From contig JACPCR010000064.1 in NCBI GenBank assembly GCA_016179685.1, positions 181,186-245,185 on the forward strand: a DNA stretch of 64,000 nucleotides. The letters run 5' to 3'. The first letter of the stretch is position 1. Each line of letters begins with the position of its first letter. The position numbers and the translations under genes are program-made. The stretch comes from Planctomycetota bacterium (lineage in GTDB: Bacteria; Planctomycetota; PUPC01; JACPCR01). Below are positions 5,495-48,527 of the stretch, piece by piece. Under the pieces are notes generated by a model. The model was given only the letters and a program-made list of their open reading frames with translations, did no database searches and was not told where the DNA came from.

Positions 5495-6811
5495 GTGAGC
5501 CCTGCGCCCTCAAGTGTTCCGCGAGGCCTTCCCGTGTTTCCCTTGTTTCAACAATGCTCGCGAAGTAGCCTCGTCCGAACCGCGCTCGTTTCCCTGCCTT
5601 TGCTCGGGCTGATCCAACCCTCATGGAGTCAGGCCCAGGACGGGCCCTCCGGCATCCTGCATGCCTTTGCCACACGGCTTACACAGACGGAGGAGCGGCT
5701 TCCCATCATCCTCAGGGCGGCTGAGTTGGCGGCCCGGCGTTTCCTGGAGCACGAGGACGCCTTCATCAATGTGCCGTACGCCGTCCAAATGTCCTTCGCG
5801 GAAGAGATCGTGAACCGCGCCGGCGGCTTGGCCAACGCTCTTCCAGCAGAAGAACGGCCAGGCCACGCCTCTGCCCACGACATCGCGCTGCTCAGTGTCA
5901 GGGCCTGGAACGTCGACGGACCCGCCATTCTCGAACTGGCCAAGGAATACCGGCGGCGGGGCTGGATGGTCATCCTCTTCGCCTCTGAGTCCGGACGGCC
6001 CGATGGCCTCGAGATCGCCTTCCTCGTAGATAACGGAGCGCGTTCGGGCGCGGCCGCTCATGCCCCCGTCAACGCCCTGATTAATGTGCTCCACGCACAC
6101 CTCTGGGCATCCGAATTTGCGGCGGCACTCACCCGCCGGGACCGCTTCCCCGGCGTCCTCCTGTCCGTCGCCGTCGCTGGCTCCGACGAACATAATCGAA
6201 AGGTCCGGGCCAACCCGGGGACCCGATTTCTGGGCGAATGCGGGACCCGCATGCCCCCTGGGACTGCCGCTCGTGTCTACCTCGAACAGGTTCGGCGACT
6301 GGCCGACTCCCTTGCGGGCGAACGGACCCAACAACAGGTCCAAGCGGCCGCAGACCTCGTCCGCTCCACACTGGATTCAGGTAAACGAGTGAAGGTTTCG
6401 TCCTGCACCCATTTTCTAATGTCCGAGATCTTCCAGAACCGCCTGACCCCGCTCGAGCCCTTCCCGATCGTCTGGCAGTCCTCGAATACCGCCAGACATC
6501 TTGGCCGTGACGACCTCATGATCTGGTTTGGCTACGTGGGCATGAGCACGATCTATGAAGATTACGGCGGCGCGTTGCGACGTACGGGTGCAAAGCTTGT
6601 GGCCAGTTACGTGCCGGACCAGAATAGGGCTAATAACGCTGCCGACGCCGCCTGTCTCATCGAGCAGACCTGGGAACCACCCGACGCAGTCGTCCCTATT
6701 CCTTTCCCTCCGGATTGCATGAGCCCCGTCAGCGGCCTCAATGTTGGACTGCTCTATCGAATGCTCGAAGAGAAAATTCTGGAACTTCTGGGCAACCGGT
6801 CTGCGGAATGA
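5495..6811 (+). CDS. hypothetical protein, possibly secreted
   Basis: 438-aa ORF with non-repetitive composition; GTG at 5495, true start uncertain (hydrophobic stretch LVSLPLLGLIQP near N-terminus); no family recognised. Confidence 0.5.
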   Translation: MSPAPSSVPRGLPVFPLFQQCSRSSLVRTALVSLPLLGLIQPSWSQAQDGPSGILHAFATRLTQTEERLPIILRAAELAARRFLEHEDAFINVPYAVQMSFAEEIVNRAGGLANALPAEERPGHASAHDIALLSVRAWNVDGPAILELAKEYRRRGWMVILFASESGRPDGLEIAFLVDNGARSGAAAHAPVNALINVLHAHLWASEFAAALTRRDRFPGVLLSVAVAGSDEHNRKVRANPGTRFLGECGTRMPPGTAARVYLEQVRRLADSLAGERTQQQVQAAADLVRSTLDSGKRVKVSSCTHFLMSEIFQNRLTPLEPFPIVWQSSNTARHLGRDDLMIWFGYVGMSTIYEDYGGALRRTGAKLVASYVPDQNRANNAADAACLIEQTWEPPDAVVPIPFPPDCMSPVSGLNVGLLYRMLEEKILELLGNRSAE

Positions 6812-40691: not shown

Positions 40692-41048
40692 GAAATGGCA
40701 AAGCCAAGCAAGTTGACAGAAAGGCGTGAATCCTTATAAGGGAGTCTTATAGCTCCCGCAAATAACTGCTCTTGTGAGTGTTGGCCATAGAGGCCATAAA
40801 TCTGATATATTCTTACCTTAGATCACTTACGTGCCGATACCAGCGAGACCCGCCTGCGCCGCGGGCGCGGCAGGCAGGCGTTGGCATTTCCAGTTAGGTT
40901 TTTGCGGCTGCTCTTAGGTTGTCACTTCCCCGCGCCCGCCTCCCATAGTCCCAACGGGATCCCTCCCGCCGGGATAAGTTCGGCGGGCACCCGGCGGAGA
41001 TCTTTCACGGTCATGGAAGCGCTTTGCTTCCGCATCGGGAGTTGCAAT

Positions 41049-41444
41049 ATGGCTGACTCTGAAATTCTTCCCGAGGGGAAAGTAGCTTCATCGGGAAAAC
41101 ATGGGGAAGTCAAGTTTGACTACATCAAGAGCAATCATTTTCGGGTAATCTATGCTGACGGTGTCTGGGGTGGTCTAACTCCACGTCTCAAGATGCAGAT
41201 CACATTTTGGAATGAACGCCACCCCATCCCCAGGCAAATCGTTCAGGAACTCACGGAGAAAGAACAGCCGGGTAGAGAATTAAGGCGAGAATCCAGAGAG
41301 GCAATCGTTCGAGAACTCGAGGCTTCGGTCATCATGGACCTCGAGGTGGCCCGCTCTTTCTGCAAGTGGCTCACCGAAAAGATTGAGAAAGCTGACCAAC
41401 TCTTGGCCCAACACAAAGAATCAGAAAAAAAGGAGAATCGTTGA
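41049..41444 (+). CDS. hypothetical protein (island cassette gene 1)
   Basis: within ORF 40881..41444; ATG 41049 preceded by GGGAG; lower-GC region; C-terminal predicted helical/charged tail; no family recognised. Confidence 0.5.
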   Translation: MADSEILPEGKVASSGKHGEVKFDYIKSNHFRVIYADGVWGGLTPRLKMQITFWNERHPIPRQIVQELTEKEQPGRELRRESREAIVRELEASVIMDLEVARSFCKWLTEKIEKADQLLAQHKESEKKENR

Positions 41445-42040
41445 TGCCACCGGCGAGTGCAATGTCCGATGTTATTCGCGCAGGTTCTCACTGCACCAGC
41501 ACTCTTGACTTGAGAGTGCCCCTTCCAGGAGCCAGTCAACTAGAATATGCAGCGTGCTTCCGAAATCCTATTGCCCTGGGTGAAGAGATTCCTTCAGAAT
41601 CCCCATCGGATTGGCCTGTGCCGTTGGACGAGGCGACCGTGGATGCCCTGGGTGAACATAATCTTTCGGAGTTCCCATCGGATTTGACATTTTCCGAACC
41701 TTGCAGCGAGCGAGATCTGGAAGATTATCTCAGAAGTCTCGAAGATGAGGGGTTTATTCCCTCCTCGATGAGGAGGAGCGCTCTGAAACTGTGGAAAACT
41801 TTAGAGCATCTTTCAGGTCATTGTTTGACGATTCCGGGTGCTGCTCCAGGCCCTGACGGGAAGTTATTCCTCGTTTGGGGTGAGGGCGAGCACCACTTCG
41901 AGGCCGAGTTGATCCCTGACAACCCGATAGAGTTCTTCTACATGAACCGCGGAACCAACGAGACTTGGAGTGGAGAGGCTGCTGATGAGAATGAGGTATC
42001 CCACGAAATCGTAGAGAAGCTGATGTCTCTTTGGGGGTAG
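41444..42040 (+). CDS. hypothetical protein (island cassette gene 2)
   Basis: ATG 41444 overlaps upstream stop (TGATG), AAGGAG 9 nt upstream; acidic protein; no family recognised. Confidence 0.5.
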   Translation: MPPASAMSDVIRAGSHCTSTLDLRVPLPGASQLEYAACFRNPIALGEEIPSESPSDWPVPLDEATVDALGEHNLSEFPSDLTFSEPCSERDLEDYLRSLEDEGFIPSSMRRSALKLWKTLEHLSGHCLTIPGAAPGPDGKLFLVWGEGEHHFEAELIPDNPIEFFYMNRGTNETWSGEAADENEVSHEIVEKLMSLWG

Positions 42041-42044
42041 CCTC

Positions 42045-42533
42045 ATGCCCGCAGTGAAGCGAGGGGTGGAGGGCGAGCCCTTACCCGGCGAGGAAGTCGT
42101 TTTCCGTCTCTGGCGGAAAGGAAAGGATGGCACGCGCGATGAATTGGTGGCCGCTTTTGAGTTGTCAAGCGATGAGAGGCGGTCACTACGCCCCACGTTG
42201 TCAGTTTTTGCTGAGGGGCTCACTTCCCATGAACAGGCATTCGAAATTACTGGGAAGAATTCGTTGAAGCGACTCGTGCTCCGAATGCAGGTCTGCGAAA
42301 TTCGGAAGATCGACTTGGTGCCTCCTGACCTGAATTTTCGTGGTCTCGATGTCATCTGGGTCCAAGCCAAACTGCAGGAGAATGGCCGAGAAGTCCCGGA
42401 CGAAAGACCGGGTGCTGAAGGTCATGCTGGAATTTTGGGACTCAGTAGCCCTCCAAACAAGAACTCTAGAAAAGTACTTCGAGTGAAACTTGCCGAATTA
42501 GCCTACCACAACGATCCCTTTGACAAACGTTGA
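42045..42533 (+). CDS. hypothetical protein (island cassette gene 3)
   Basis: 162-aa ORF 5 nt after previous stop; no family recognised. Confidence 0.5.
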   Translation: MPAVKRGVEGEPLPGEEVVFRLWRKGKDGTRDELVAAFELSSDERRSLRPTLSVFAEGLTSHEQAFEITGKNSLKRLVLRMQVCEIRKIDLVPPDLNFRGLDVIWVQAKLQENGREVPDERPGAEGHAGILGLSSPPNKNSRKVLRVKLAELAYHNDPFDKR

Positions 42534-42638
42534 CGGCGAGTGCAGGTACCCGGCAATCACGTCCGATGAGTCCCATCCTCTGATCGAATACCCGCACCGA
42601 GAATCCAGTCAGGTTCTGCAGATAGCGCAGCTTCTTGT

Positions 42639-44681
42639 TTACTCCAGAATAAGCGATTTCGTCAGAAGCTTCTCGATGTAGGTGGCCTTGTCTTCCTTCT
42701 GGAAAAGCACATGGTGCTTCTCGAAGGAGGCCTTGTTCGTCCCGCCCTCCCACCAAGTGACTTCCTCCCGGCGGGTACTTGAAAGGATGAAGGAATTCAG
42801 GATGACGGCTGGATCGCCTATCCGGCCCTCCAACTCTTTGATCGTGGCGTGGAAACGAATCTTCGGGTCGTTCTTGCCCTCAAGATTCCGGATGCCTTTG
42901 GGATCAATGAAGGTGATGTGCTGGCGGCTGCCCGATAGAAGCCAGAGGATGAAATCCGGGTAGAAGTTCCCCGCCTCGAAGAACCCGATACCCCGGCCCC
43001 GGCTCTGGTTGCGTAACAGGTAGAGTTCCTTCTCCTTGAAGAAGCCCTTGTTGCTGTCGAAGAAGGAGCGCAGGTCGAGGACGAATTCCCTTTCGCCTTC
43101 GTTCAGGGAAACCGGTCGGACCTCGATGTTGTCGCCCTTGAGGTAGAGGAGAGGGCGGTAGAGGTGCTGGCCGAAGCAGATGCCGCGAAACCGGTCGTGC
43201 TCGATGTCCCGCCATTCGCCCCGCTCCACGGCCTGCTTCAGTTCCTTGAGCTTGGCGATGATTTCCTTCTCGGATTCGTCAATCAGAATGCGGTATTCTT
43301 CGATGAAGTTGGGGTCGTCCGGGCGCAGTTCCCGATACTCTAGGTGTGGATTCTCATACTCCGCCTTCCGGTAATAGTAGTAACGCTCGCAGTATTTCTT
43401 CAGCAGGGCGATCGCCACCTCTTCCCATGCCCGAACCCTGCCGAAGCGGGTCAGGCTTAGCTCCGTTTCGGGAATGTAGAGCGTATACCAGTCCGACCGA
43501 GCCAGCAGACTTCGCACCTGCTCCCTGGACAGGCTGAGGTTATGCCAGGCCTTCTCGCTCTTGAAGTGCTCAAGCTCGAAGAACACGCGGTCGAAATCCA
43601 TGAAAGCCAACTGGACGTCCCGCAGCTTCCCTTCGTGCTGTTCGGCAGCGCCCTGACTCGTTCCCGCGCCGCGGCTGATGTGCGCTTGGACTCTCGGATA
43701 CCAGTCCAGGACGACCGGATACCTGACCAGATGTTCCGGCGGCACGTCGAGCGCCGGCTTGGGTCCGTCCCGCTTGAAATCAATGCCGTCTTTCAGCTTG
43801 AGAGTCTTGAGCTTCGTCTGGCCGAGGTTCTTCAGGACGGGCAGGACAAACTCCATCCGATCTTCGTTGGACGGCAGCCCCTCCTCTTCGAGGTATTCCT
43901 TGAACTGCCGCATGTAATCGGCCCGGATGCCGAAGATGTGAATGTCGATGATTTCCACGGATTTCCCGGCGAACAGCCCACGCCCGTCCTTCGAGAACAT
44001 TTCCGCCTGAAGCCCGGACAGCCCGAATTCCTCCAGGTGTTGCCTCGATAGCCCTTCGTTGGGAGTCAGGAGAATGATGCGATTGAGGTTGCGTTCCTTG
44101 CCGTGCTGGGCCAGGTAGTGTCGATACTGAAGCAGGTTGACGTGCATGAGCAGCGTCTTGCCCGACCCAGTGGCGCTCCAGAAGGCCAGCTTATTGAGCT
44201 GCTCCGGCTCGTAGGGCTGAATCTTGTCCCCCTCTGTTTTGTCCTCGTTGAAGCGCCTGACGAACGCGTTCAGGTCATTGAGCAGGGTATCCGGATTCTG
44301 GAAGTAACGGTCGAGGTAAATCTCCGTGAACAGCAGCGAGAGGTATTGGAAATACTTCGGGTAGAGGTTGTTGGCCTGGTGGCGCTTCTCGGTGATGACT
44401 CGCCAGTGGCGGACAATGTTTTGGTCGTATTGGAGAAGCAGGTCCGAGGGAAGCTGCTTGCGCTGGAATAGGCGGGCTTTGAGGACGTGGTGATAATGGC
44501 TGACGCCTTCGCCGTCGAACCCCTCCAGGTTTGGGCTTTTCAGCTCCTCGGCGAGCTGGCCAATGCGTTCGACCTCGAACAGGTCGAGCCTCCACTGGGC
44601 GAGGACGAGGCGCTCGTCGAATTTGAGGCGGGTCTCGCGGCGGGTTGGGCCGGCTCTCCTTCGGGCGGTTCCTGAAGGCAT
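42639..44681 (-). CDS. restriction-endonuclease-like P-loop NTPase (Res-like: helicase-type ATPase with C-terminal PD-(D/E)xK-like motif)
   Basis: 680-aa ORF; Walker A FWSATGSGKT; degenerate motif II-like IIDIH (no DExH); C-terminal YPDFILW...TFIDPKG fits PD...(D/E)xK nuclease pattern; last gene of the mod-containing minus-strand array. Confidence 0.55.
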   Translation of the reverse strand: MPSGTARRRAGPTRRETRLKFDERLVLAQWRLDLFEVERIGQLAEELKSPNLEGFDGEGVSHYHHVLKARLFQRKQLPSDLLLQYDQNIVRHWRVITEKRHQANNLYPKYFQYLSLLFTEIYLDRYFQNPDTLLNDLNAFVRRFNEDKTEGDKIQPYEPEQLNKLAFWSATGSGKTLLMHVNLLQYRHYLAQHGKERNLNRIILLTPNEGLSRQHLEEFGLSGLQAEMFSKDGRGLFAGKSVEIIDIHIFGIRADYMRQFKEYLEEEGLPSNEDRMEFVLPVLKNLGQTKLKTLKLKDGIDFKRDGPKPALDVPPEHLVRYPVVLDWYPRVQAHISRGAGTSQGAAEQHEGKLRDVQLAFMDFDRVFFELEHFKSEKAWHNLSLSREQVRSLLARSDWYTLYIPETELSLTRFGRVRAWEEVAIALLKKYCERYYYYRKAEYENPHLEYRELRPDDPNFIEEYRILIDESEKEIIAKLKELKQAVERGEWRDIEHDRFRGICFGQHLYRPLLYLKGDNIEVRPVSLNEGEREFVLDLRSFFDSNKGFFKEKELYLLRNQSRGRGIGFFEAGNFYPDFILWLLSGSRQHITFIDPKGIRNLEGKNDPKIRFHATIKELEGRIGDPAVILNSFILSSTRREEVTWWEGGTNKASFEKHHVLFQKEDKATYIEKLLTKSLILE

Positions 44682-44687
44682 CGGTGG

Positions 44688-45013
44688 CTAAGGTGATGGA
44701 AGAGGAATTTCAACATACTGGCCGGGTTTCACGGTCTTCAGTGTTTGCTCGATGACGGACAGAAGGCCGGCCACCATCGGAACCTGGTTGCTGGGAAGAA
44801 CCACCACTGCGAGCTTTATTGCGGCAAGGTTCTGCTGATAGCGTAAGTTCTTGTCCGTGGTCATGAAGACGTCAAACTCGTTCTCCGCTCGCCTGAGCAA
44901 TTCGCCGTTCTTCAGCCCGCTCCACAAACCATTTCCTGAACGGTTCGGATTGCCAGATCGGGAAGTCGCGTCTTCACCAGCCGCGGCACGCACTCATCAA
45001 GTAAGATTCTCAA
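44688..45013 (-). pseudogene. DUF5615-like (PIN-like) toxin-type gene, apparently frameshifted
   Basis: N-terminal ILLDECVPRLVKTRL (DUF5615-like) is read in one frame from TTG ~45013, the remainder (...WSGLKNGELLRRAENEFDVFMTTD...) in ORF 44688..44993; frames differ by 1 nt near 44930. Confidence 0.4.
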
Positions 45014-45255
45014 TTCGACCTACCCAGGCGCAGAAGGGTGGCTTTGGAGAATTCAAGGACTTGTAACGCCTGCTCTCGAGTCACGGAAGGGAAGTTCTCC
45101 AGAAATTCTTCCAGGGTCAGGCCCGCCTCGAGGTTGTCAATGAGGGCTTGCACCGGGACCCGCGTCCCCCGGAAAACGGGCGCTCCGCTGACGATTTCGG
45201 GATCGATGGTTATCGGCAACTGCTCAAGCTCTGCCTCTTCAATGACCAGTGACAT
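45010..45255 (-). CDS. DUF433 family protein (antitoxin-like partner of DUF5615)
   Basis: ORF 45010..45297; start at ATG 45255 with GAAGGAGG upstream; GAPVFRGTRVPVQALIDNLEAG matches DUF433 pattern from memory. Confidence 0.6.
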   Translation of the reverse strand: MSLVIEEAELEQLPITIDPEIVSGAPVFRGTRVPVQALIDNLEAGLTLEEFLENFPSVTREQALQVLEFSKATLLRLGRSN

Positions 45256-45318
45256 CGTGGGCCTCCTTCGTGAGGGTCGGGAATCGACGAGAGCCATTTT
45301 ACTCCAGATTGCCTTCCC

Positions 45319-48300
45319 CTACACGTCCTTCACGTCGAACATCAGCCGCTGGAATTCCTCCTCAATTAGCCGGACTTTCCAGGTCATGTCCTCACGGCGC
45401 AGGTTTTCCAGGTGGTTGTCGCCGTTCACGTAAATCAGGTCGAACTCCTGGTCCCGGGTGTTGTACTTCTGCTTCCGGAAAAACTCGTCCAGGTCCTCGT
45501 TCGACTTCCCTGCCTTCCCGTCGGGAGCAGACAGGTCCTTCAAGCTCCGCCAGATGACCAAAACCTTCTCGCCCTGGGGATTCGTGCCTTGGACGACCCG
45601 GAAGCCCCGGATAACGTCCACGTGCATTACCCGGAGGCCCAGCAGGTAGTTGAAGGTCTCGACCAGGTCCACGGTTGTGGGCCGAGTCTCGCCCGCGCTG
45701 CCGGTGGCGATGTTGAGCTTGTAGAAGAAGGGGTCTTCGAACGCGGCGATGTTCAGCAGCGACGCGCTGCCGCGGCTCTCCACGTCCAGCATATAGGAGA
45801 GGAGGTAGTCCTCCCGGACTCCGTCGTTGGCTTCCAGGAGGGCGGCCTGCAAGTCGGTGCGTTTCAGTTCCAGGTTGTTGAGGGTGTCTTCGTAGGATTT
45901 CAGCCGGAGGTATTTGAAGAGGTGGCTGGAGCCTTCGCGGCTAACCGGCTTGCCGTCTTTCCAGTCCTTGGAGTAGATGACCTTCTGGATGCGTGGCTTG
46001 AGGACGGTATTGAAGTATTCGGCCATCTCGACGAGGATATACTTGCGGCCCCCCCCGGGTCTCGCGCGTCATCGCGATTCAGGTTGATGACGGCATGGCC
46101 CGTGGTGCCGGAACCGGCGAAGAAGTCCAAGACCAAGGAGTCCTCCGCGTCCGAGCAAATAAGCACGCAATCCTTGACAGCGTGTAGGGATTTGGGGAAG
46201 TCGAATGGACTCAGCGGACCAAACATTTCCTTCAATTCTTTCGTTCCATTGTCCCGAGCAGAATAGGCCGGGCTATCCCACCACGTGCGAGGCAGCGACC
46301 CTTCTTCGCGTAAGTACTTCCGTTTGTAAACCTCGTACTTGCCATCTCGCTTCATCACCTTCATTAGACAGACCTCTGCGATCGCCCTTTGAACGCCGAA
46401 GTTCCAGACCTTTTCAACGCCTGAATCGTCAATGGGCCAAATAGCGACTTCGCCGGGACGGGTTTTCTCGTTGATCCTCCAACTTTTACTGGTTTCTAGC
46501 CATTCCATCCCGGGGATCCGCTGTGCGTGATGCGCCTCGTCGAAGTAGATCGGAAAGAATTGCTTCGGTCGGTCTGGTCTGTCCGATCCCCTGCTGCTCT
46601 TCCTGAAGTTCTCCCATTCGAACGGTTTTCCCTCCTCATCTACTTGGTCGTACCTTTGTCGCTGAGAGTCACTGTGAGGCAACCGACCAACTTCGGAAGA
46701 CTGTGCAAGTTTCGAGTAGAACAGCGCGTACTCGTGGTTAATGGCGAACCCCTTCGTCGTAGCGCGACCGGACGGGTTGTTGCGAATCACAACGGTCGCC
46801 ATGTAGTTCTCATCAAAGAAAACACGATCTAACACAGACCTCAGGCGGTGGGATTCGTAGTCATCTATCGTCACGCACAGCAGCCCGTCGCAAGACAGGA
46901 CTTCACGTGAGAGTGCAACTCTATCTTCGACGAGGGAAATCCAAGTCGAGTGCTTGTACTCGTTCTTATACAGAATCTCGCTCTCTATCGCGTTATAAGG
47001 TGGATCGATGTAGATACACTTAATCTGTTCCCTATAGCGTGTTTCTATTAGGTTGAGCGCCTGGAAGTTCTCCCCGTGCACCAGCAGCCCGTCGGTATTC
47101 TCGTCCAGGTCCTGGATGCTGGCCAGCAGGCGGTCTTTGAACTCCGGGTCGAAGAAACGGGTGTCCAACACCAGGAAGGGATTAGCCTTCAGGAACTCCA
47201 CAGTGAGCGGCTTGGAATATTTCGGGGTGTGCAGGTCGCCCTGGATTTCGTCAATGGCGAAGAGGCGGACCCATTCCTCCCGCTGGGCGTCGCTGGCCGC
47301 GATTTCTACGTATAGCTCCCCAGGGACGCGGTCGAGCGTGATGCAGTAGTTCGTCTCGACCACGAACTTCTTCTTGAGCCAGAGCTTCTTCTGGAAGTTC
47401 TCCAGTTGCTCCAGGAAGGCGATGATCTTGTGGGCGATGCGGCGGAGCGCACGGATTTTGCCGAGATACTGCTCCACGCGGGGCGCGGACTCGCTTTCGA
47501 TGTCGTCCAGGTGCATGACCTCGTTCTTGATGTAGAAGTCCAGCTCCCGGCGGAGGAAGCCGCCCAGGTCCTTGTGGATGAAGTAGTCGAAGGTGTTGCG
47601 GGCGGTGTAGTCCGTGAGGTGCTTTTCGAGAAGGGTGCGGTCGGGATTCTTTTCGGTGGGGGCGGGGGTGGAGAGTTCCTCAATCCATTCTTTCGCATTG
47701 GCGGCTTGTAGTGCCCTCTTTAGAGGGTTGCCTTCGTCTGCACTACCCGCATCGAAGAGACCCGCTGTCCCAGCGGGATCCCTATGGGAAAGCGGCACTA
47801 CGAACCCGGAAGCGATGGCGGCGTTGTGATCCGACTGTTTCCGTTTCTGCGGGTCCGGCTGGTAGAGGAAGTGGATGAATAGCTCGTCAGGCTTTATGTC
47901 CACGGGATTCGATTCGCAGAGCATGAACCGGCGCTCCTTGTCGGGCCCGGCTTTCTGGTTGTCCTTCTCGGTGTCGGCTTCGACGAGCTTGAAGTGGACG
48001 CGGCGGCCGGAGGGGAGCTTGAAGGTGTAGTCCCGGAAGTATTCGGACGACTTGACGTAATACTGGTCGTGATTGGCCCAGTGGAGCTTGACCTCCTCGC
48101 CTTCGTAGGGGATGGCATAGACGCCTTCCTTGTAGCGGCGGAGGGAAAGGAAGTCGCCCTCGTGGTAGTAGCGGCGGAAGAAGTTGGTGAGGTCGGAGAA
48201 GATTTCCTGTTCGAGGGCGGCGGGGTCGCCGGCGGACTGGTATTTGGCCTTGAGTTCCTTGACCTTCGGGCTGGTTTCCGGGTCGATGCCAAGTCCTTTG

Positions 48301-48527
48301 GCCTGTTCGATGGCTTCCTTGAGTTGGGACTCGATGACGCGCTGGTCGCCGGACTGGTGTTCGCTTAGGGCATTGCGGACTTGCGGGAGGAGGTCTTTGT
48401 CGAGGAAGCGGGTAATCTCGTCCCGCTTCTGGTTCATGATGCGGTAGATGCCGAAATCGAGGTCGGCCTGGTCGAGCTGGAAGAGCTCGGCGAGCAACCG
48501 CCTCAACTTCTCGAGGTTTTGAGACAT
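45319..48527 (-). CDS. beta-class (N6_N4_Mtase-type) DNA methyltransferase, type III Mod-like, with ~500-aa N-terminal extension; reading frame interrupted at a C8/G8 tract
   Basis: ORF 45900..48527 contains motif IV IYIDPPYN and, ~300 aa later, motif I LDFFAGSGTTGHA (order IV then I = beta class); C-terminus continues in ORF 45319..46026 if the G8 run at 46049-46056 is read as G9 (...NLNRDDARDPGGGRKYILVEMAEYF...). Confidence 0.7.

Follow-up and report, generated by a model that had tools for sequence, protein, structure and literature searches.

A three-gene cassette of a Planctomycetota bacterium as a candidate toxin-antitoxin-like module with an ADP-ribosyltransferase-like effector and an exchangeable first gene

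Small toxins with an ADP-ribosyltransferase (ART) fold are found in the two-gene systems RES-Xre, ParST, MbcTA and DarTG, whose toxins are NAD-dependent; in the first three of these systems the antitoxin gene lies directly upstream of the toxin gene. CmdTAC, a toxin-antitoxin-chaperone (TAC) system, comprises a third gene. Here, the antitoxin holds the ART toxin, the stability of the antitoxin depends on a SecB-like chaperone, and newly made phage capsid protein triggers the system by titrating the chaperone away (PMC11618068; 10.1101/2024.02.24.581848). The modularity of TAC systems has been shown experimentally, as chaperones and toxin-antitoxin units can be recombined (PMC11618068; 10.1101/2024.02.24.581848). 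In the present work we analysed three coupled small open reading frames (ORFs) in a 64,000-nt stretch of a Planctomycetota genome (contig JACPCR010000064.1, positions 181,186 to 245,185), hereafter called the window, for which an original prediction from the sequence had proposed an accessory or defense module. We consider it rather likely that this cassette is a horizontally acquired, modular, tripartite toxin-antitoxin-like module that follows the logic of CmdTAC while being unrelated to it in sequence. The three genes are:

41049 to 41444, + strand: ORF1, 131 aa, ATG start, GGGAG 7 nt upstream
41444 to 42040, + strand: ORF2, 198 aa, AAGGAG upstream
42045 to 42533, + strand: ORF3, 162 aa

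Both the ORF listing and the sequence agree with the original prediction in the number, coupling and sizes of the genes. As predicted, the first junction is a 1-nt overlap, with one base common to the ORF1 stop codon TGA and the ORF2 ATG, whereas the second, given as 5 nt, has 4 nt between the ORF2 stop and the ORF3 ATG. A purine-rich Shine-Dalgarno-like site indeed precedes each of the three starts. The proposed start of the cassette at 40700 had to be corrected, as it takes in a non-coding leader of 357 nt, the genes beginning at 41049. The same three genes are annotated by NCBI in a Planctomycetes metagenome-assembled genome (locus tags HYU36_10400/05/10), where ORF2 is called shorter, with 138 aa and a TTG start at 41624. 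The N-terminal part of ORF2 contains a 41-nt direct repeat (41572-41612 and 41644-41684, 83% identical, 72 nt apart, in frame), i.e. an in-frame internal duplication of 24 codons which straddles the start chosen by NCBI. Because of this duplication, the overlap with ORF1 and the AAGGAG site, we prefer the longer reading of 198 aa. Since all three products have relatives elsewhere, ORF1 to ORF3 are taken to be real genes, and that they form a conserved cassette appears virtually certain.

No family had been recognised for any of the three proteins. This stands insofar as the window proteins match no Pfam, NCBIfam or PADLOC model, ORF3 included; it does not stand insofar as ORF3 shows a predicted ART-like fold, ORF1 is a distant relative of DUF3467 and all three belong to sizeable uncharacterised families. 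For ORF3, an indexed protein search returned 19 relatives with identities of 36-49%, and a profile search of 1.84 billion proteins yielded 546 representatives (50% clusters) at E <= 1e-3, 91 of them at E <= 1e-30. Nearly all of 145 diverse representatives are stand-alone proteins of 130-220 aa. When structures were compared, ORF3 matched Tse2 (6.8; second-best), AvrPphF (6.0), RES toxins (5.8, 4.8) and DarT (5.6, 5.3, 4.6), and furthermore TreX, TreTu, scabin, CARDS, pertussis-like toxins, LT, Tne2, MbcT, ParT and SPN; a Foldseek search with the ORF3 model returned nothing but noise from the PDB. The model displays the split beta-sheet NAD-binding fold common to solved ART structures, so that an ART-like fold of ORF3 is predicted with high confidence. 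Three residues stand out among the 145 representatives, namely R21 in the first strand (127/130), S53 in the second strand (141/144) and H127, which is invariant (140/140), opens a late strand and is part of a G126-H127-x-G129 motif. Further conserved positions are S41, D/E44, T60, R87, W105 and R146. The Arg on strand 1 and the Ser on strand 2 recall the R-S-E clade of ARTs, and judged by strand order, not by superposition, H127 would occupy the position of the catalytic Glu.

An ORF2-like gene lies directly upstream of the ORF3 relative, adjacent or overlapping, in 17 of 18 distinct loci, which corresponds to the conserved, co-oriented and tightly spaced gene pair of type II toxin-antitoxin systems. 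This set was assembled from five encoding-contig look-ups, nine loci on genome contigs of six phyla, the window and three more loci; as two Microcoleus loci are near-identical, eight of the nine genome-contig loci count as distinct, and seven of these eight carry the pair. The only locus without a detected ORF2-like partner (L020) holds a distant ORF3 relative (5722-6351). This gene is followed by one for a P-loop protein with a GEYGTGKTF motif, which by eye resembles a BREX-associated ATPase.

In the indexed protein search ORF2 found only itself. Its homologues were recognised as the products of the genes directly upstream of ORF3 relatives, with BLAST E values between 1e-9 and 1e-22 for a C-terminal stretch of ~100 residues. 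Hereby, the N-terminal halves are unrelated in sequence and length, and the C-terminal domain of ~100 aa is conserved with the consensus PDAxPGPDGxLLYTW...EHHFExEIF....EFFYRNR.T.E.W and the invariant residues P131, W145, E155 and E163-F164-F165. One may speculate that the aromatic EFFY...W segment serves as a recognition element. The protein is acidic (pI 4.4; family median 5.1). Many antitoxins carry a ribbon-helix-helix DNA-binding motif; an N-terminus of this appearance (VVVELPYSTYSALMKAAQERGTTPADWIASNL), seen by eye in the ORF2 relative of locus L103 (278-754), was not confirmed by a PDB sequence search. Taken together, the ORF2-ORF3 pair is likely to be toxin-antitoxin-like.

The gene in front of this pair is variable. 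In ten of the 18 distinct loci it encodes a TIGR04255 family protein of 245-273 aa (NCBIfam E values of 1e-27 to 1e-44 for the four that were scanned, the others being assigned by BLAST or by eye), in L107 a protein of 243 aa to which no family is given, and in the window alone ORF1. In L015 and L019 the pair has no first gene at all, and in L019 it follows directly after a tyrosine integrase. TIGR04255 proteins, with ~250 aa, thus take the same first position as ORF1 and are absent from the window. The idea that ORF1 is half of a TIGR04255 protein was rejected, as the two are unrelated by profile comparison (hhalign 2-3%).

Ten relatives of ORF1 were retrieved by the indexed protein search and 169 from metagenome contigs. 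The only recurrent family match is a weak one to DUF3467 (PF11950), seen in 5 of 11 (best E 0.0012) and then in 11 of 67 ORF1 relatives (best E 2.5e-5); DUF3467 proteins and the ORF1 family are similar in size (about 100-130 aa), and we presume that DUF3467 is grouped with SecB-like folds. At the 61 metagenomic loci whose sequence extends far enough downstream, two closely spaced genes come after the ORF1 relative, d1 (about 130-210 aa) and d2 (about 125-200 aa). ORF1 and d1 overlap by 4 nt at 32 of the 61 loci, and at 57 of them the gap is at most 10 nt. According to BLAST clustering, d1 and d2 co-vary strictly, the pair types being:

d1 cluster 0 (HEAT-like by eye) with d2 cluster 1 (DUF7689, E 1.5e-39): 27 loci
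d1 cluster 2 with d2 cluster 4: 15 loci
d1 cluster 5 with d2 cluster 6: 14 loci

Behind ORF1 relatives there are hence at least four kinds of co-varying partner pair, and the ORF2-ORF3 pair in turn occurs with ORF1, with TIGR04255 or alone. Three of the profile comparisons (hhalign) connect the partner pairs to the window: the ORF3 family with cluster 6 (94.5%, E 8e-8, over nearly the entire length and with alignment of R, S and H), the ORF3 family with cluster 4 (79%, E 1.6e-5) and the ORF2 family with cluster 2 (63%, E 7e-5). A fourth links cluster 2 with cluster 5 (88.5%, E 2.7e-6). Cluster 4 carries a pattern Y-x-R / SVNR / HSE, which looks R-S-E-like. From these profile links of clusters 2, 4, 5 and 6 it follows that, by sequence comparison, the window cassette belongs to a superfamily of three-gene cassettes which is old and has diversified; as the ORF2-ORF3 pair elsewhere usually follows TIGR04255, it is a hybrid of an ORF1-type head and this pair subtype. 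No relation was found between ORF2 and the HEAT-like partner of DUF7689, and the cluster 4 and cluster 6 effectors are not directly related to each other. The original prediction of one coupled accessory unit is thereby upheld: confinement of the three-gene arrangement to this genome had been named beforehand as the outcome that would speak against it, and the arrangement is kept in other genomes.

Two further cassettes of the ORF1 type deserve mention. In the commonest one (L004:3632-5048 and 26 further metagenome loci), the DUF7689 protein has the conserved Cys/His motifs YNCIAWA ... HAARQ ... SKLG and is possibly a thiol-peptidase-like effector. An unannotated ORF1 relative of 117 aa lies on the megaplasmid of a cultured organism, Methylorubrum extorquens AM1 (L108, NC_012811.1, 174627-174947). 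Behind it come two small overlapping ORFs whose products seem to have transmembrane helices, and it is adjoined by an IS110-like transposase.

The base composition of the cassette sets it apart from its surroundings. In accordance with the original prediction, the 41-42 kb bin has the lowest GC content of the island (0.512), tied with the 8-9 kb bin for the minimum of the window. GC content at third codon positions (GC3) is 0.52-0.55 in ORF1 to ORF3 compared to 0.71-0.83 in the neighbouring genes; the mraY-like gene upstream has 0.79, and res and mod of the adjacent Type III restriction-modification (R-M) system have 0.74-0.79. The cassette is therefore foreign in composition even relative to the adjoining R-M "island", and since the R-M genes are host-like in GC3 and look decayed, it represents a separate acquisition. 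A recent horizontal acquisition of an accessory module is thus supported. The argument from island context, on which the original prediction had drawn, is weakened by the same observation on the R-M neighbours, yet in several loci the relatives of ORF2-ORF3 adjoin DNA methylases, toxin-antitoxin pairs, an integrase or an insertion sequence (IS).

On this basis we propose that ORF3 is the effector, which would most likely harm the cell by ADP-ribosylating a macromolecule or by consuming NAD+. ORF2 would most likely be its cognate antitoxin, because it is acidic, is encoded directly upstream, co-varies with the effector type and occurs together with ORF3 also without the first gene; it may act through its conserved C-terminal domain. 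ORF1 would be an accessory third component, which is coupled to ORF2, can be exchanged between effector types and here replaces the TIGR04255 protein. That ORF1 is functionally coupled to ORF2-ORF3 is probable. By analogy with toxin-antitoxin-chaperone systems, it would most likely stabilise or control the antitoxin, and it could act as the sensor of a trigger such as phage infection; a chaperone or sensor function remains a tentative proposal drawn from that analogy.

Like CmdTAC and other TAC systems, the cassette consists of three coupled small genes that include a predicted ART-fold effector with a dedicated partner, and like in TAC the third component, here of the ORF1 type, is shared among different partner pairs. 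In contrast to CmdTAC, the window proteins show no sequence similarity to its components (no PADLOC match), ORF3 has conserved R, S and H instead of the H-Y-[E/D/Q] triad of CmdT, the genes run in the order third component-partner-effector and not toxin-antitoxin-chaperone, ORF1 shows no detectable similarity to SecB, and ORF2 has a folded conserved C-terminal domain where CmdTAC has a disordered chaperone-addiction tail. The small ART-fold effector and the upstream position of the partner gene are shared with RES-Xre, ParST and MbcTA, and DarTG likewise has a small ART-fold toxin; each of these four toxins is a structural match of ORF3. However, ORF3 differs from them in its signature residues and has no Pfam RES, DarT or DUF2384 match, and unlike in the two-gene systems, ORF2 is not Xre/DUF2384-like, lacks a macro domain and is accompanied by a third gene. 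Profile searches thus place ORF3 in none of the known ART toxin families, the comparison supporting membership in the ART fold superfamily.

Several observations weigh against the interpretation as a toxin-antitoxin-like module. A Pfam scan of the 145 diverse ORF3 members gave not a single ART-family match, and no PDB entry was matched by ORF3-family sequence profiles. Ahead of the late strand, the acidic E125 varies among the family members, and a canonical catalytic Glu is not conserved; NAD+ chemistry of ORF3 is therefore not assured. To our knowledge, no ART activity is known for the ART-like Tse2, which is among the top structural matches. For ORF2, neither the Pfam scan nor the PDB profile search revealed a recognisable DNA-binding or known antitoxin domain. 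The link of ORF1 to DUF3467 is weak, as the window protein itself gives no match at E <= 10, and its structure model is too poor for a fold search (mean model confidence, pLDDT, of 66). A SecB-like nature of ORF1 was not supported at the level of sequence profiles: the hhalign comparison of its family with SecB of E. coli (sequence confirmed against PDB entries) reached 1-2%, and Pfam SecB did not match. Housekeeping genes predominate in the neighbourhoods of 25 ORF1-type loci, where two integrases, one Rep and one methylase were seen as well. In PADLOC-DB 2.0, finally, neither ORF1-3 nor the TIGR04255 partners had a match, and of the other pair types only one matched, weakly. Moreover, all claims on the cassette derive from computation, i.e. 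from sequence comparison and structure models. In PDB sequence-profile searches, the ORF1, ORF2, ORF3 and TIGR04255 families all gave chance-level matches.

Other explanations assign the same genes different roles. ORF3 might be an exported ART-like toxin similar to the type VI effectors Tse2 and Tre1, with ORF2 as immunity protein and ORF1 as export adaptor or chaperone. Effector-specific chaperones and adaptors are common in loci of secreted effectors, and besides Tse2 also the Rhs/type VI ART toxins TreX, TreTu and Tne2 were matched in structure. Yet ORF3 is a bare domain of 162 aa without an N-terminal trafficking region, nearly all of its relatives being of comparable size, and no secretion-system genes are found beside the cassette or among the neighbour families of 38 related loci. 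The partner gene moreover lies upstream and overlaps in the style of type II toxin-antitoxin systems, whereas immunity genes usually lie downstream. We hence regard secretion as improbable. It is a very unlikely explanation that ORF3 is no toxin but a housekeeping-type NAD-dependent nucleic-acid enzyme related to KptA/Tpt1, which would act as RNA 2'-phosphotransferase, in capping or in repair and have ORF1 and ORF2 for its accessory subunits. The structural alignment with Tpt1 covers only ~90 residues, the winged-helix domain at the N-terminus of Tpt1 is missing from ORF3, and Pfam and PDB profile searches detect no sequence similarity between them; the family profiles of Tpt1/KptA, like those of the RES domain (PF08808) and DarT (DUF4433), match neither ORF3 nor any of its 145 relatives. 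Selfish or conflict modules would account better than a repair enzyme for the sporadic spread across phyla, the foreign composition, the strict pairing with an acidic upstream partner and the exchange of the first gene.

A different question is whether ORF1 belongs to the pair at all. It could be the remnant of another ORF1-type cassette whose own partners were replaced when a self-sufficient ORF2-ORF3 module was inserted. In line with this, the ORF2-ORF3 pair occurs in none of the 80 best metagenomic loci with an ORF1 relative and is elsewhere found with TIGR04255 or alone. The pair is also bracketed by an exact 11-nt repeat, CGGCGAGTGCA, at 41451-41461 (7 nt into ORF2) and at 42534-42544 (directly after the ORF3 stop), a position that would fit a recombination scar of module swapping, although about 0.5 such repeats are expected by chance. 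Against a remnant speak the intact stop/start overlap with the strong Shine-Dalgarno site for ORF2 inside ORF1 and the same atypical GC3 in all three genes. Furthermore, ORF2 and ORF3 are remote homologues of the usual partners of ORF1 relatives, and the combination of ORF1, ORF2 and ORF3 is therefore within the normal repertoire of the family. We thus consider a remnant unlikely and retain ORF1 as the third component of a toxin-antitoxin-like module.

Regarding a role in defence, the commonest neighbours of 13 ORF3-type loci are R-M methylases (N6_Mtase 3, Eco57I 3, N6_N4_Mtase 2, MmeI_Mtase 2); single cases include a SMODS-associated 4TM effector, an IS21 helper, toxin-antitoxin pairs (Panacea, HicB/PIN, YoeB) and an integrase. 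No ORF3 relatives were found in viral contigs, phage records and plasmids, and ORF1 relatives occur there in one viral contig and one megaplasmid only. Together with the ORF1-type loci, these neighbourhoods fit scattered, mobile modules of the toxin-antitoxin type and allow a defence role. An anti-phage function of the cassette appears somewhat less probable than its absence. Of the proposed "defense module", which the mixed neighbourhoods leave at the level of a hypothesis, the description as a toxin-antitoxin-like module with an ART-fold effector is the better supported version. The sole PADLOC signal comes from a cluster-2 partner (L023:3580-4164), which weakly matches the C-terminal part of the candidate PDC-M32A (E 6e-5). 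A literature search on TIGR04255, DUF7689 and PF11950 found nothing, and DUF3467 and PDC-M32 each received one passing mention in an unrelated paper.

The cassette is thus best described as a candidate toxin-antitoxin module in which an ART-fold toxin is combined with a third subunit that can be exchanged, and there is a fair chance that the ORF1/TIGR04255 layer represents a new kind of control subunit. If the proposed model is right, the ART-fold toxins would gain a family of several hundred sequence clusters in which a conserved His sits where the catalytic Glu is normally found, and this non-canonical His would raise the question of chemistry and target. Beside the SecB-type TAC systems there would be a second, sequence-unrelated design of toxin, antitoxin and exchangeable third subunit, with DUF3467-like and TIGR04255 proteins as alternative third subunits, and the orphan families DUF3467-like, TIGR04255 and DUF7689 would obtain a functional context. 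The cassette would also provide a candidate phage-defence system from the experimentally under-sampled Planctomycetota, Armatimonadota, Chloroflexota, Cyanobacteria and Gemmatimonadota. A wider and more doubtful generalisation is that ORF1/DUF3467-like and TIGR04255 proteins form a new class of exchangeable sensor or chaperone subunits. These would control a large, so far undescribed superfamily of abortive-infection or toxin-antitoxin systems, each of three genes and with effectors that can be swapped, as an analogue of TAC that is unrelated in sequence and widespread in environmental bacteria. Its effectors might comprise two or three divergent ART-like families with the unusual R-S-H site, the Cys/His DUF7689 family and small membrane proteins.

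Upstream of the cassette the following features were noted:

40692 to 41048, + strand: non-coding leader of 357 nt, from the mraY-like gene to ORF1
40849 to 40878: imperfect GC-rich hairpin in the leader
40949 to 40975: two palindromic 12-mers in the leader, TCCCAACGGGAT and TCCCGCCGGGAT, 15 nt apart

The two 12-mers could be an operator or a chance occurrence. Promoter and terminator scans of the region stayed at chance level, the leader giving no promoter call above chance; an Rfam scan of the region returned no families, and the 64-kb window contains no tRNA genes. On the downstream side, as had been predicted, ORF3 is convergent with the Res-like gene (42639-44681, - strand); the spacer between them measures 105 nt. 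The Type III R-M system to which this gene belongs (42639-48527, - strand) has a decayed look. Hereby, mod is split into two overlapping frames (45900-48527 and 45319-46026), and Res has 680 aa compared to a PADLOC profile of 1154 positions, of which only the C-terminal part aligns well. Between mod and res (44688-45297, - strand) lie a DUF433 gene (45010-45297, Pfam E 8e-21) and an ORF of 101 aa without family match (44688-44993), which together look like a small pair of the toxin-antitoxin type inserted into the R-M operon.

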